This document shows, one piece after another, positions 40,401 to 48,486 of a DNA stretch of 64,000 nt (position 1 is the first letter of the stretch; each line of letters opens with the position of its first letter). The stretch lies in sequence record OR352951.1, one strand, 5' to 3'. The position numbers and the translations under genes are program-made. The notes beneath the pieces are model-generated. The model ran no database searches and was not told the DNA's origin. It saw only the letters and a list, made by a program, of their open reading frames with translations. The stretch comes from Escherichia phage AV121.

Positions 40401-41988
<1,588 letters not shown>

Positions 41989-41996
41989 AATAAAAT

Positions 41997-42010
41997 GGGC
42001 CTTGCGGCCC
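41997..42010 (-). terminator. hairpin between nrdB stop and denA start
   Basis: GGGCC-ttgc-GGCCC stem-loop. Confidence 0.5.
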
Positions 42011-42015
42011 ACTCC

Positions 42016-42518
42016 TTAAAAGTATTTTTTAAAACTCATCATAACTTTATCATCAACATCATTATCAATCTGTGCAACAAGATAAGATGACAGTTCTACT
42101 TCTTGCGGCGCGGATTGAACATTATCAGAATTAAGGTATTCACGAATCCAAGGATATGGATGTTTAATCGGAGCATCGGTAATCGGGCATGGAAGACCAC
42201 ACTGTTTCATACGAGATACAGTTAAGTAATCAATAAAGCTCCACATGCTATTTGTATTTAATCCAGGAACATCGCCATCTTTAAATAAATGAACTGCCCA
42301 ATCTTTTTCTTGGCGGTTAACTTCCATGAAAATATCAACTGCTTCTTGTTCACACTCTTGAGCAATTTTAACCCATTCATCGCCATCAGTGCCAAGTTGA
42401 AGTTGACGAATAATATATTGAGTGCCTTTAAGGTGAAGCTGCTCATCACGTGCAATGAACTTCATAATCTTGGCATTACCTTCCATGATTTCCATATTCT
42501 TGTGGAAGTTAAAGGTAC
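42016..42518 (-). CDS. nrdB: ribonucleotide reductase small subunit NrdB, exon 2
   Basis: Homology to class Ia R2 C-terminal half (MEGNAKI..ARDE.LHL); exon start inferred at 42518 so that splicing yields ...YVSFA-C-TFNFHKNMEIMEGNAK, parallel to E. coli [21 protein letters not shown]. Confidence 0.8.
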
Positions 42519-43609
42519 CGTTATGTTCGATTGAGCTCGCTAATTCTCAACCCGTTCTCTTATGAACTGCTACATATTACTATGCAGACCAGACTATATC
42601 ACAATCCCAGAGGGATTCTCCCCATTTCGAGTCGCTTGACCCTACGTCCGAAGACTAGTCGTTGAACCTTGCTTTGCAATTGTCGCCGTGCCATCGTTTA
42701 TATGTTGATGGTGATAAATCTTTCTTATCACAATATGGACAATTCAATTGAATTCTATTTGGATTTAATTTACATCTGTCATTATGTTTTAGATAAAATC
42801 CAGGACCTTTACCAATGTGACCGCAGAAATCACATGTGATTTCTTTTTGTGCAGGATGGGTCCCGTTCTTAACCATTTCTAATGTTTTTGCTGATGTTCT
42901 TTTCTTATGGTCTTCTGACAAGAAATGATGTGAACCGTCATTTACCCGTTTTGATTGAGTTTCTGACTGCATTTTACCACCGCAAAATACATGAGTACCT
43001 TCTTTTATAGCTGCAATATTGCGTTCTTTAACTTTTGCAATATGCTCAGCTTGTTGAAAATTATGTATACCTAATGCAACTCTATTTAAATTAGATTTAC
43101 GCTGTATTTCACCGTCTAAAAGATGAAATGTACCATTTTCTATCTTAGATTTAATAGAGGCAATATTTTTAGCTCGTACTTCAGGGATATTAAAAATCTG
43201 GATTTCTCTAGATTTTGCGGCTTTAGAAGCTAATTCAGAAATTTCTTCAGGAGAATATTTCATTCTAAGCTTTATAGCATGACAAGCCTGGTAATCTTTT
43301 TGAGCTAAATGTATATCATAATGTTCCTGTATAGAAAGGCACATCAAATTATCTAAATCATTATTTTCACGGTTACCGTCTTTATGATGGATTTCGTATG
43401 TTCTTCCATCAGAATCTTTAGGTATAGGTCCGTTAGCATCTATCCAAATTTTTCTATAGTTCAATTGTGCATCCTCTTAAAAGTATAATCATATTTATAT
43501 TATACTAATTAAAGGTGCAAGCAAAACCTTGGCTGCTAGTTTTCCTATAAAGGACTTTCCAGCAATTAAAGGAGTTTTCGATAAACGTTACCGTTTAAAG
43601 GCGCATTTT
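42519..43609 (-). mobile_element. group I self-splicing intron in nrdB carrying I-TevIII
   Basis: Interrupts the R2 reading frame between YVSFA and TFNF; 5' exon ends in U; intron ends ...GAACAUAACG, nearly identical to the td intron 3' end GAACAUAAUG; boundaries inferred (±1-2 nt). Confidence 0.75.
42655..43464 (-). CDS. I-TevIII: I-TevIII HNH homing endonuclease (intron-encoded, full length)
   Basis: 269-aa ORF inside the nrdB intron; HNH (YEIHHKDGNRENNDLDNLMCLSIQEHYDIH) and C-terminal Zn-finger-like CxxC..CxxC; TTG start after AAGAGGA; T4 copy is truncated as recalled. Confidence 0.8.
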   Translation of the reverse strand: MNYRKIWIDANGPIPKDSDGRTYEIHHKDGNRENNDLDNLMCLSIQEHYDIHLAQKDYQACHAIKLRMKYSPEEISELASKAAKSREIQIFNIPEVRAKNIASIKSKIENGTFHLLDGEIQRKSNLNRVALGIHNFQQAEHIAKVKERNIAAIKEGTHVFCGGKMQSETQSKRVNDGSHHFLSEDHKKRTSAKTLEMVKNGTHPAQKEITCDFCGHIGKGPGFYLKHNDRCKLNPNRIQLNCPYCDKKDLSPSTYKRWHGDNCKARFND

Positions 43610-44285
43610 ACGCAAAAGATACATAAAAACGAATAGCTTCTAAGGCATTAATAACGTGTAAACAGAGGTAAAGAGACTTCATTAAAGCACGTTTAGCTTC
43701 GGCTTCTTGTTTAATAGCTCGGTTTAAACGAAAGTCGGCATCAGGAGATTCTTTAGCTAGTTCTACAAATTCTTTAGCATTTTCCCATTCACGGGTTTTA
43801 ACCAAGACATCATCATAATAGCGACCGATAGATTCAGCACGTTTCATGATAGCTTCATCTAATACAATCTCATCAAATACCTTCGATGGATCAGTATAAA
43901 GATTTCGCATGATATGAGTATATGAACGACTGTGAATAGTTTCACTAAAAGTCCATGTAGCAACCCATGTATCAAGGCTTGGGTCTGAAATTAATGACAT
44001 AAGTACAGCAGACGGCGCACGGCCCTGAATGCTATCCAAAAGTGATTGATACTTCAGGTTGTTAGTAAAAATATTTTGCTGATACTGAGGAAGCTTATTA
44101 AACTGTGCAGCATCCATCATCAAGTTTACTTCTTCAGGACGCCAGAAAAATGATAATTGCTTTTCGGTTAAATCTTCAAAAACTTTATGACGTTGAATAT
44201 CATAACGCGCAATACCAAGACCTGAACCAAAAAACATAGGTTCTTTTAAAACATCAACTGGATTTGTATTAAAAACTGTGCTCAT
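43610..44285 (-). CDS. nrdB: ribonucleotide reductase small subunit NrdB, exon 1
   Basis: 225 codons homologous to R2 N-terminal part (LKEPMFFG, KQLSFFWRPEEV ... RFYVSFA); in-frame stop right after the inferred 5' splice site. Confidence 0.85.
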
Positions 44286-44336
44286 AAATTTTCCGCTTAG
44301 TTAATAGTTGGTGACTCGTCCGTGAGTCAAATTATA

Positions 44337-46601
44337 TCATAATTTACAGGATGAACAATCTTCAGCTTTTGGAGTTTCTATTTCATAATCATCAGTACCA
44401 GAACCATCGCGGGTATTATGATAATAGAAATTTTTTCCGCCAAAATACCAAAAATACAAAAGGTCATCAATCATTATTGACATTGGAACCTTGCCTTTAG
44501 GGAAGATTTGGGGGTCATAGTATGTATTCGCCGAAGCTGATTGACAAACCCATTTCAGCATAATAGCTACCTGCGTAAGATAAGGTTTATTACCTTTCTT
44601 AGCTAATTTCCATGTATAGTCGTAAAGGTCTATGTTATGCTCAATATTGGGCACGACTTGATTAAAGGAGCCCTCTTTTGATTCTTTAACAGAGACTGGT
44701 CCACGTGGAGGCTCGATACCGTTTGTACTGTTAGAAACTTGGGAAGATGACTCACATGGCATAAGTGCTGATAATGTGCTATTACGGATGCCAAAGAGCT
44801 TAAGGTCTTCCCGCAGCGCCGACCAGTCACAAACGTATTTTGGAGCTGCGATTTGGTCAATCTTTTTATTGTACCAGTCGATAGGTAATTCGCCTCGAGA
44901 CCAACGAGTGTCTGAATAATATTCGCAAGGTCCTTTTTCTTTGGCGAGCTTAATGGATGCTTTAATGAGTCCATACTGTAATCTCTCAAATAGTTCATGT
45001 GTTAAATCATTAGCATCTTCATAAGAAGCAAAGTTACTTGCCAGCCAAGCTGCATAGTTGGTAACACCTACACCGAGGTTACGACGCTTTTTAGCTTTTT
45101 CTGCTTCAGGAACTGGATATCCTTGGTAATCCAACAGATTATCAAGAGCACGAACTTGAACTTCTGCCAATTCATTAATTTTATCTTGGTCTTGCCAGTC
45201 AAAATTATCTAGTACGAATGCAGAGAGAGTACACAATCCAATTTCAGCATCAGGACTATTCACATCATTTGTTGGAATAGCAATTTCACAGCACAAGTTA
45301 CTCTGACGAATAGGTGCCTTTTCACGAATAAACGGAGTATAGTTATTCGTATTATCAATGAACTGTACATAAATTCTTGCTGTTCCTGAGCGTTCAGTCA
45401 TGAGCAATTCAAATAGTTCACGGGCTTTAATACGCTTTTTACGAATATTAGGGTCTTTTTCTGCTGCTTCGTATAATTCACGGAAACGGTCTTGGTCTTT
45501 AAAATAAGAATAATAAAGCTCTCCGCCCATTTCATGGGGACTGAACAAAGTAATGTAATCGTTCTTTCCAAAACGTTCCATCATCAAATCATTCAGTTGA
45601 ACACCATAATCCATATGACGAATGCGGTTTTCTTCTACGCCTTTGTTATTTTTCAAAACAAGAAGATTTTCAACTTCCAAATGCCAAATAGGATAATAAG
45701 CAGTAGCAGCGCCGCCACGAATTCCACCCTGTGAGCATGATTTAACAGCAGTCTGAAAATGTTTCCAAAAAGGAATAACACCAGTATGGCGTACTTCACC
45801 CATGCCAATCTTAGAACCTTCAGCACGAATCATACCAACGTTAATACCAATTCCAGCGCGTTTAGAGATATATTCAACAATTGAAGCAGAAGCCTTATTG
45901 ATAGACTTCAGTGAATCGCCTGCCTCAATAACAACGCATGAACTAAACTGCCGAGTTGGAGTACGGCAACCAGCCATAATAGGAGTTGGTAATGAAATCT
46001 GTCGAGTAGATACCGCTTCATAAAAACGGATAACATGTTTTAATCTATCAACAGGTTCATCTTGATGCAAGGCCATTCCAATAGTCATAAATGCAAACTG
46101 TGGAGTTTCATAAATTTGACCAGTGGTTTTATCTTTAACTAGATATTTTTCTTTTAATTGCATCGCCCCGGAATAAGTAAATTCCATATCCCGTTCGTGC
46201 TTAATTTTTGATTCTAAAAATGTAATTTCTTCTGCTGAATATTTTGACAACAGTTCAGGGTCGTATTTACCTTCATTTACACAGTAAGAAATATGGTCAA
46301 TAAATGAACGCGGTTCATACTGCCCATAAACATGCTTACGAAGAGCGAACATTAGACAACGTGCAGCTACATATTGATAATCAGGCTCTTCGACCGAAAT
46401 AGAATTCGCAGCGGCCTTAATGACAATAGTCTGAATATCATCAGTTGTCATTCCATCACGGAGATAAGATTTAATATTTTCATATAATTCATAAGGATCT
46501 ACTGATGTTCCCTCAGATGCCCAAGATAAAACTTTAATAATTTTTTGCGGGTCAAAGCTCTGAGAAACACCACTACTTTTGATAACATTAATTAATTGCA
46601 T
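44337..46601 (-). CDS. nrdA: ribonucleotide reductase large subunit NrdA
   Basis: 754-aa ORF, same length as T4 NrdA; ATP-cone N-terminus and catalytic Cys motifs. Confidence 0.95.
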   Translation of the reverse strand: MQLINVIKSSGVSQSFDPQKIIKVLSWASEGTSVDPYELYENIKSYLRDGMTTDDIQTIVIKAAANSISVEEPDYQYVAARCLMFALRKHVYGQYEPRSFIDHISYCVNEGKYDPELLSKYSAEEITFLESKIKHERDMEFTYSGAMQLKEKYLVKDKTTGQIYETPQFAFMTIGMALHQDEPVDRLKHVIRFYEAVSTRQISLPTPIMAGCRTPTRQFSSCVVIEAGDSLKSINKASASIVEYISKRAGIGINVGMIRAEGSKIGMGEVRHTGVIPFWKHFQTAVKSCSQGGIRGGAATAYYPIWHLEVENLLVLKNNKGVEENRIRHMDYGVQLNDLMMERFGKNDYITLFSPHEMGGELYYSYFKDQDRFRELYEAAEKDPNIRKKRIKARELFELLMTERSGTARIYVQFIDNTNNYTPFIREKAPIRQSNLCCEIAIPTNDVNSPDAEIGLCTLSAFVLDNFDWQDQDKINELAEVQVRALDNLLDYQGYPVPEAEKAKKRRNLGVGVTNYAAWLASNFASYEDANDLTHELFERLQYGLIKASIKLAKEKGPCEYYSDTRWSRGELPIDWYNKKIDQIAAPKYVCDWSALREDLKLFGIRNSTLSALMPCESSSQVSNSTNGIEPPRGPVSVKESKEGSFNQVVPNIEHNIDLYDYTWKLAKKGNKPYLTQVAIMLKWVCQSASANTYYDPQIFPKGKVPMSIMIDDLLYFWYFGGKNFYYHNTRDGSGTDDYEIETPKAEDCSSCKL

Positions 46602-47470: not shown

Positions 47471-48486
47471 CATTATGTTCAGATAAGGTCGTTAATCTTA
47501 CCCCGGAATTATATCCAGCTGCATGTCACCATGCAGATCAGACTATATCTCCAACTTGTTAAAGCAAGTTGTCTATCGTTTCGAGTCACTTGACCCTACT
47601 CCCCAAAGGGATAGTCGTTAGGCATTTATGTAGAACCAATTCCATTTATCAGATTTTACACGATAAGTAACTAATCCAGACGAAATTTTAAAATGTCTAG
47701 CTGCATCTGCTGCACAATCAAAAATAACCCCATCACATGAAATCTTTTTAATATTACTAGGCTTTTTACCTTTCATCTTTTCTGATATTTTAGATTTAGT
47801 TATGTCTGAATGCTTATGATTAAAGAATGAATTATTTTCACCTGAACGATTTCTGCATTTACTACAAGTATAAGCAGAAGTTTGTATGCGAACACCGCAC
47901 TTACAAAACTTATGGGTTTCTGGATTCCAACGCCCGTTTTTACTTCCGGGTTTACTGTAAAGAGCTTTCCGACCATCAGGTCCAAGTTTAAGCATCTTAG
48001 CTTTAACAGTTTCAGAACGTTTCTTAATAATTTCTTCTTTTAATGGATGCGTAGAACATGTATCACCAAACGTTGCGTCAGCAATATTGTATCCATTAAT
48101 TTTAGAATTAAGCTCTTTAATCCAAAAATTTTCTCGTTCAATAATCAAATCTTTCTCATATGGAATTTCTTCCAAAATAGAACATTCAAACACATTACCA
48201 TGTTTGTTAAAAGACCTCTGAAGCTTTATAGAAGAATGGCATCCTTTTTCTAAATCTTTAAAATGCCTCTTCCATCTCTTTTCAAAATCTTTAGCACTTC
48301 CTACATATACTTTATTGTTTAAAGTATTTTTAATCTGATAAATTCCGCTTTTCATAAATACCTCTTTAAATATAGAAGTATTTATTAAAGGGCAGTCCTA
48401 CAATTTAGCACGGGATTGTCTACTAGAGAGGTTCCCCGTTTAGATAGATTACAAGTATAAGTCACCTTATACTCAGGCCTCAATTA
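47471..48486 (-). mobile_element. td group I self-splicing intron carrying I-TevI
   Basis: Exon 1 ends ...UUGGGU, intron begins UAAUUGAGGCCUGAGUAUAAGGUGAC and ends ...GAACAUAAUG; length 1016 nt, equal to the T4 td intron as recalled. Confidence 0.9.
47618..48355 (-). CDS. I-TevI: I-TevI GIY-YIG homing endonuclease (intron-encoded)
   Basis: 245-aa ORF beginning MKSGIYQIKNTLNNKVYVGSAKDFEKRWKRH; GIY-YIG module plus C-terminal Zn finger/HTH; inside td intron. Confidence 0.9.
   Translation of the reverse strand: MKSGIYQIKNTLNNKVYVGSAKDFEKRWKRHFKDLEKGCHSSIKLQRSFNKHGNVFECSILEEIPYEKDLIIERENFWIKELNSKINGYNIADATFGDTCSTHPLKEEIIKKRSETVKAKMLKLGPDGRKALYSKPGSKNGRWNPETHKFCKCGVRIQTSAYTCSKCRNRSGENNSFFNHKHSDITKSKISEKMKGKKPSNIKKISCDGVIFDCAADAARHFKISSGLVTYRVKSDKWNWFYINA

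Follow-up and report, generated by a model that had tools for sequence, protein, structure and literature searches.

The full-length group I intron of the T-even nrdB gene has reportedly been known since 1991, when Eddy and Gold are said to have described it in phage RB3 (GenBank X59078). The nrdB introns of T4 and RB3 have been described as self-splicing group I introns (PMC2790892, PMC1865063), and the endonuclease encoded within the intron, I-TevIII, was characterised in 2007 (PMC1865063). The RB3 enzyme cleaves intronless nrdB, is needed for homing and acts as a dimer (Robbins et al. 2007, PMC1865063), and mutagenesis showed that H26, H27, N39, H48, C211/C214 and C242/C245 are required (PMC1865063). 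Its specific activity was very low and homing reached 4.3%; Robbins et al. left the low activity, weak binding and lability of the enzyme all unexplained (PMC1865063). The T4 nrdB intron relies entirely on mobE, acting in trans, for its mobility (PMC2790892). The ORFs of the T4 intron endonucleases are silent on the pre-mRNA; their translation takes place from a late transcript, in which the 5' arm is missing, and late or middle promoters have been described for the three intron ORFs (PMC2988022). Sequences resembling the homing site have been proposed as autorepression operators, autorepression having been shown for I-TevI only (PMC2988022).

Here the nrdB locus of Escherichia phage AV121 (OR352951.1) was compared with these systems. 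The window, i.e., the whole stretch of DNA that was analysed, is 64,000 nt long. With a probability of about 95%, the analysis identifies the element interrupting nrdB as a full-length RB3-type mobile group IA2 intron of T-even nrdB with I-TevIII.

Comparison with the introns of RB3, T4 and other phages

The minus strand of the window carries, from 40.4 to 50 kb, the genes frd, td, nrdA, nrdB, denA and rnlA in the T-even order. The interrupted nrdB gene and the intron in td are made up as follows.

43610..44285, minus strand: nrdB exon 1, 676 nt (ORF list and sequence)
42519..43609, minus strand: group I (IA2) intron of nrdB, 1091 nt, first base A43609, last base G42519
42016..42518, minus strand: nrdB exon 2, 503 nt including the stop codon; Pfam Ribonuc_red_sm, profile positions 174-271
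47471..48486, minus strand: td intron, group I, 1016 nt
47618..48355, minus strand: I-TevI ORF in the td intron, full-length, 245 aa, GIY-YIG

The RB3 nrdB intron lies in the same gene at the same insertion site and has the same length of 1091 nt, with 1090 of the 1091 bases identical. It also shares the 269-aa ORF, the HNH and zinc-finger residues, the late promoter and the hairpin over the ribosome-binding site (RBS), and in the RB3 annotation nrdB is given as a two-piece join with I-TevIII inside. The two phages differ between nrdA and nrdB, where RB3, like T4, carries the free-standing HNH gene mobE, whereas in AV121 the spacer from the nrdA stop to the nrdB start is only 51 nt long (44286..44336) and mobE is absent. 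It is absent from this spacer in phage CE1 too. The region 42400..43750 (1351 nt) matched Tequatrovirus NIC06P2 at every position (100% identity) and RB3 with 99.4% identity. Since the whole region is matched exactly in a public Tequatrovirus genome, a chance origin of its sequence features is ruled out.

The T4 nrdB intron has the same insertion site and core and is approximately 98% identical over the shared parts, but it measures 598 nt. It has a 491-bp deletion that removes the HNH domain, two 1-nt indels and compensatory changes in P9. The length of the deletion is not divisible by three, so the frame is shifted, and the annotated remnant ORF of T4 begins at another ATG. An earlier sequence-only reading of the window had described the T4 copy as truncated, which is right, and the alignment with the RB3 and T4 introns that it proposed gave one base of difference from RB3, and the 491-bp deletion and two 1-nt indels in T4. 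The deletion is bounded by an imperfect direct repeat.

43397..43406, minus strand: left copy of the repeat, GAAGAACATA
42906..42915, minus strand: right copy of the repeat, GAAGACCATA

The nrdB region was matched by 613 phage records and the intron by 128, of which 84 hold at least 80% of the intron length. Phages G2469 and JK45 carry this intron with 100% identity along its full 1091 nt, and the remaining records have ORF-deleted introns (T4 type, SG1 or CE1) or are intronless. The full-length nrdB intron with I-TevIII is therefore a known, widespread element; public phage genomes already contain identical copies, and its finding in AV121 adds nothing new. At least three different internal deletions of the ORF exist in nature, leaving introns of 304 nt (CE1), 420 nt (SG1) and 598 nt (T4) with the core intact. 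The nrdB intron clearly illustrates how the endonuclease can be lost repeatedly while the intron is retained.

The td intron resembles the nrdB intron in its P7.1/P7.2 subgroup architecture, in the ORF looped out of the core, in the control by a late promoter and RBS hairpin, and in a near-identical 3' end (GAACAUAAUG vs GAACAUAACG). In the window, the 3' end of the td intron reads GAACATAATG and that of the nrdB intron GAACATAACG, so that the near identity claimed in the sequence-only reading was confirmed. The td intron differs in its host gene and in its enzyme, I-TevI being a GIY-YIG monomer that cuts 23/25 nt upstream (PMC2988022). In AV121, at least two introns with an endonuclease ORF thus lie in a stretch of less than 6 kb.

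A related intron was observed in the 'ATPase' gene of Pseudoalteromonas phage pYD6-A (Schitoviridae, marine N4-like; L006:2400-2610). Its P7-P7.2 region resembles the T4 td intron, with three compensatory pairs in the P7.2 stem, and over the final ~90 nt (P9.1-P9.2) the pYD6-A intron shares 86.5% identity with that of nrdB. This composition suggests that the pYD6-A intron is a mosaic and that intron modules may have been exchanged between very distant phages.

I-TevIII and its residue 23

The endonuclease ORF and the one codon that sets it apart from the RB3 copy are located as follows.

42655..43464, minus strand: I-TevIII ORF, 269 aa, UUG start
43396..43398, minus strand: I-TevIII codon 23, TAC (Tyr), the sole difference from RB3 (GAC, Asp)

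The predicted product is identical to RB3 I-TevIII at 268 of 269 residues and matched Pfam HNH_3 with E = 6e-13, which bears out the claim of an intact, full-length HNH/zinc-finger I-TevIII. The HNH residues H26, H27, N39 and H48 are all present and are invariant in 61 family members. Both zinc fingers (CX2CX12-13HX3C) are present as well, one with C211/C214/H227/C231 and the other with C242/C245/H259/C263. Every residue that mutagenesis of the RB3 enzyme showed to be essential is found in the AV121 protein. A second Pfam match, to FlgM at residues 74-114 (26.2 bits, cut-off 25), is probably spurious and was put down to a compositional or helical coincidence, since nothing else supports it and there is no anti-sigma context.

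With regard to a beta-beta-alpha-Me fold, pLDDT in the AlphaFold model exceeded 90 over residues 1-80, where strands at 24-27 and 40-43 and a helix at 45-54 were predicted. The modelled chain is elongated and multi-module (pTM 0.43), with low confidence at residues 221-252. As a whole chain it was a poor query for Foldseek, which gave no significant match against the PDB (I-HmuI, 1U3E, ranked fourth with E = 3), and a sequence search of the PDB with I-TevIII returned 0 matches. I-HmuI of phage SPO1 (PDB 1U3E), like I-TevIII, is an HNH enzyme that is encoded in an intron and binds DNA through an extended, modular region; it acts as a monomer that nicks one strand, in contrast to the dimeric I-TevIII, which breaks both (PMC1865063).

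Two further features of the protein were observed. In 53 of 61 relatives there is just one zinc finger, which corresponds in the alignment to the CX2C of I-TevIII finger 1 and to the HX3C of finger 2; this pattern suggests that the finger pair of I-TevIII arose by tandem duplication of one ancestral finger. The middle of the protein, residues ~100-205, contains about five helical repeats, each following a G-[TS/I]-H-x-F-like motif (NGTFHLL, LGIHNFQ, EGTHVFC, DGSHHFL and NGTHPAQ); the number of repeats varies among relatives.

Residue 23 lies three residues before the catalytic H26/H27 and directly precedes the first HNH strand (24-27) of the AlphaFold model, in a part with pLDDT above 90. Among the 61 family members, which are metagenome-derived, it is Tyr in 56, Phe in four and Leu in one, and in none is it acidic; the family consensus at this place reads GRTYEIHH. 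The Salmonella Gelderlandvirus orthologue, 90% identical, also has Tyr. With an 80-nt query, the codon context of Tyr-23 was matched exactly in at least 51 records, from phages of Escherichia, Shigella, Salmonella, Klebsiella and Yersinia. The Asp-23 context was matched exactly by no phages other than RB3 and its nearly identical siblings, which are RB5, RB6, RB7, RB9 and RB10. Because Asp-23 is private to this lineage, Tyr-23 is the consensus and the activity of the RB3 enzyme is poor, we tentatively suggest that the Tyr-23 allele could be the wild type and the RB3 Asp-23 enzyme a hypomorphic private variant, a reading we hold as possible rather than favoured. Searches of the literature after 2010, whose coverage was incomplete for subscription journals, found biochemical work on no allele other than that of RB3, and, within the same incomplete coverage, no paper testing or mentioning the effect of D23Y.

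The sequence-only reading had proposed that this phage could act as a donor of the nrdB intron. This is a reasonable inference from the essential residues and the near identity to RB3: the donor role is plausible because the ORF product equals, at 268 of 269 positions, an enzyme that cuts intronless nrdB and promotes homing. Alternatively, the intron might splice while the endonuclease, through poor activity or expression, is ineffective for homing, so that the element would be passed on by vertical descent only. Decay is common among homing endonuclease genes, and the nrdB intron itself has undergone several independent ORF deletions (T4, 598 nt; SG1, 420 nt; CE1, 304 nt). Even the RB3 enzyme shows very low specific activity and 4.3% homing (PMC1865063), and AV121 is without mobE, the mobiliser of the T4 intron in trans. 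However, the AV121 ORF is uninterrupted with all known essential residues in place, its single change from RB3 restores the family consensus instead of departing from it, and the Tyr-23 allele recurs without change in at least 51 records that span many isolates and hosts, a distribution that an actively or recently spread element would show. We consider this alternative unlikely, and an intron with a functional I-TevIII is the preferred reading.

Splice junction and ribozyme core

The NrdB frame (exon 1 ORF, 44285..43608) runs into a TAA directly after ...RFYVSFA and restarts 1091 nt downstream at TFNFHKNMEIMEGNAK. The break in the R2 frame and the gap of 1.09 kb had been noted in the sequence-only reading, and the ORFs and the sequence agreed with its coordinates to the base. 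Pfam PF00268 was matched on both exons, and Ribonuc_red_sm was matched in exon 1 with E = 7e-20 over profile positions 9-141. When U43610, the 3' end of exon 1, was joined to G42518, the Cys codon U|GU was formed and the minus strand read ...YVSFA-C-TFNF.... The joined exons encode a NrdB of 392 aa, which aligned with E. coli R2 at E = 6e-126 (residues 3-388 vs 3-373) and without a gap at the junction (AIRFYVSFACTFNF vs AIRFYVSFACSFAF). The intronless phage RB32 has TTT GCA TGT ACC at this position. The alignment with R2 and the intronless allele of RB32 confirm the restored reading that had been proposed. The predicted mRNA reads ...UUUGCGU|GUACCUUU... across the junction, and the spliced-junction query was covered to at least 80% in one place in 434 phage records.

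A junction one base to the left would be in frame too (GCG|GGT, giving Ala-Gly). It was rejected because it violates the rule of U at the 5' splice site and omega-G at the end of the intron, here the terminal base G42519, and because it would replace the Cys that intronless alleles and E. coli show there.

The ribozyme was drawn by hand from the window sequence, and its parts are located as follows.

43601..43613, minus strand: P1, exon GCGU (43613..43610) with internal guide GCGC (43604..43601), U.G pair at the 5' splice site
43517..43597, minus strand: 5' half of the core with P2, the 5' strand of P3, P4, P5, P6 and the 5' strand of P6a (pair counts and Rfam alignment of the ORF-less allele)
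42529..42677, minus strand: 3' half of the core with P6a', P6', P7, P7.1, P7.2, P3', P8, P7', P9, P9.1 and P9.2 (drawn structure and partial Rfam match)

All helices (P1, P2, P3-P9, P7.1, P7.2, P9.1 and P9.2) could be drawn with standard pairs, including the P3-P8 core with its P3/P7 pseudoknot. Most of them were recovered unaided in the minimum free energy fold of the ORF-less version. In P1, U43610 pairs with G43604 and the GCGU/GCGC pairing is invariant in five alleles; the helix has only 4 bp, and P10, by hand inspection, is weak. The P7.1/P7.2 extension is present between P7 and P3' (GUC-UUCG-GAC and GGGUC-AAGC-GACUC). The I-TevIII ORF sits between the strands of P6a and is looped out of this helix, and its final codons and stop fall inside P6a', P6' and P7.

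Covariation was evaluated in five alleles, those of the window, T4, CE1 and the Salmonella phages UTK0003 and SG1. Pairing was found in 99.8% of 423 cells, with five compensatory pairs (two in P2 and a single one in P5, in P9 and in the RBS hairpin). As these alleles are few and close relatives of one another, and as one of them, that of the window, served for drawing the structure, the result is taken as support and not as independent proof. In control structures slid by 1-3 columns, 38-44% of cells paired and no compensatory change was found.

At the gathering threshold, an Rfam search of the whole window gave no match. A permissive search matched RF00028 at 42570..42810 with 33.9 bits (threshold 50, E = 1.4e-6), only the 3' half being properly aligned; the 810-nt ORF within P6a keeps the score below 50 bits. 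In CE1 the intron occurs naturally without the ORF (304 nt); this allele, whose core equals that of the window apart from a 2-nt indel, scored 68.6 bits. In the Rfam covariance check that had been suggested, the window sequence itself thus stayed below the threshold and its ORF-less counterpart exceeded it. The claim of a group I intron was borne out by the complete group IA2 core from P1 to P9.2 and by the CE1 allele exceeding the RF00028 threshold. Weak Rfam matches to rseX, ceN113 and Atu_L1 in the region (E = 4-6) were attributed to chance.

A reductase encoded by 'genes in pieces', of which the nrdA of Aeromonas phage Aeh1 is a precedent, would have nrdB split by a free-standing endonuclease gene into two separately translated polypeptides that reassemble with no RNA splicing, and it could draw on the automatic annotations of many related phages (two 'beta subunit' ORFs with a 'hypothetical protein' between) and on an in-frame ATG ORF in the exon 2 region (42495..42016), but it is extremely improbable and was rejected, because a complete group I core flanks the endonuclease ORF and the junction splits a codon, restoring the Cys conserved in E. 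coli and intronless phages. The exon 2 ATG ORF would also miss the conserved residues TFNFHKN, and for the homologous introns of T4 and RB3 self-splicing is established (PMC1865063, PMC2790892). The group IA2 intron thus remains the preferred reading.

Expression signals, proposed mechanism and annotation

The signals around the start of the I-TevIII ORF, together with the predicted cleavage position in exon 1, are located as follows.

43492..43499, minus strand: T4 late-promoter consensus TATAAATA upstream of the I-TevIII ORF (motif search)
43470..43519, minus strand: RBS hairpin, in which AAGAGGA (43478..43472) pairs with CCUUU (43515..43511)
43507..43526, minus strand: putative I-TevIII operator by the late promoter, 17/20 match to the homing site
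43623..43625, minus strand: predicted position of I-TevIII cleavage, coordinates computed from the mapping in PMC1865063

The UUG start at 43464 lies 7 nt after AAGAGGA. The RBS hairpin folded with -14.9 kcal/mol (z = -3.65), none of 200 shuffles was as stable, and its inner stem contains one compensatory pair. The late promoter is located in the 5' arm and loop of this hairpin, and the combination of late promoter, Shine-Dalgarno sequence and hairpin matches the published scheme (PMC2988022). The 17/20 match to the homing site at 43526..43507 was reached by one of 2000 shuffles. A scan of 41900..44400 for sigma-70 promoters and terminators gave no more sites than were found in shuffles; as T4 late promoters lie outside a sigma-70 scan, TATAAATA was searched separately. 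At 41990..42012 on the minus strand, immediately beyond the nrdB stop codon and ahead of denA, a hairpin was observed (GGGCC-GCAA-GGCCC) that has AUUUUAUU behind it. It looks like an intrinsic terminator, and it was not among the sites of the consensus terminator scan.

By homology to RB3 and T4, the following mechanism is proposed. The intron would fold, within the nrdA-nrdB pre-mRNA, into the P1-P9.2 ribozyme, and free guanosine bound at P7 would attack after U43610. The freed end of exon 1 would then attack after the terminal G42519, and the ligation of the exons would remake the UGU Cys codon and so yield a normal R2 subunit of 392 aa. Early in infection, the endonuclease ORF would be looped out of P6a with its ribosome-binding site locked in the hairpin, and I-TevIII would for this reason not be translated from the pre-mRNA. 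Late in infection, the TATAAATA promoter inside the hairpin would give a transcript without the 5' arm, on which the ribosome-binding site is free and I-TevIII could be made from the UUG at 43464. In a mixed infection, the dimeric enzyme, with its HNH domain and two zinc fingers, would bind intronless nrdB across the insertion site and cut 14 and 16 bp upstream of it, leaving 2-nt 3' overhangs. Repair from the intron-bearing genome would copy the intron and flanking exon sequence into the recipient, and the intron-bearing allele would be immune because its target is split. The homing-site-like sequence by the late promoter may allow autorepression, which is the least certain step.

In many deposited genomes, the nrdB exons are listed as separate 'beta subunit' genes and I-TevIII as a 'hypothetical protein'; in the CE1 record, exon 2 is labelled 'major capsid protein'. 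The practical value of the present analysis is in annotation: in related genomes, nrdB should be given as a joined CDS with an intron feature, and the ORF inside as I-TevIII. The D23Y difference may be the sole new point on this intron. If the tentative reading of residue 23 is true, the published biochemistry of I-TevIII may describe a damaged allele, and not the enzyme that spreads the intron in nature.
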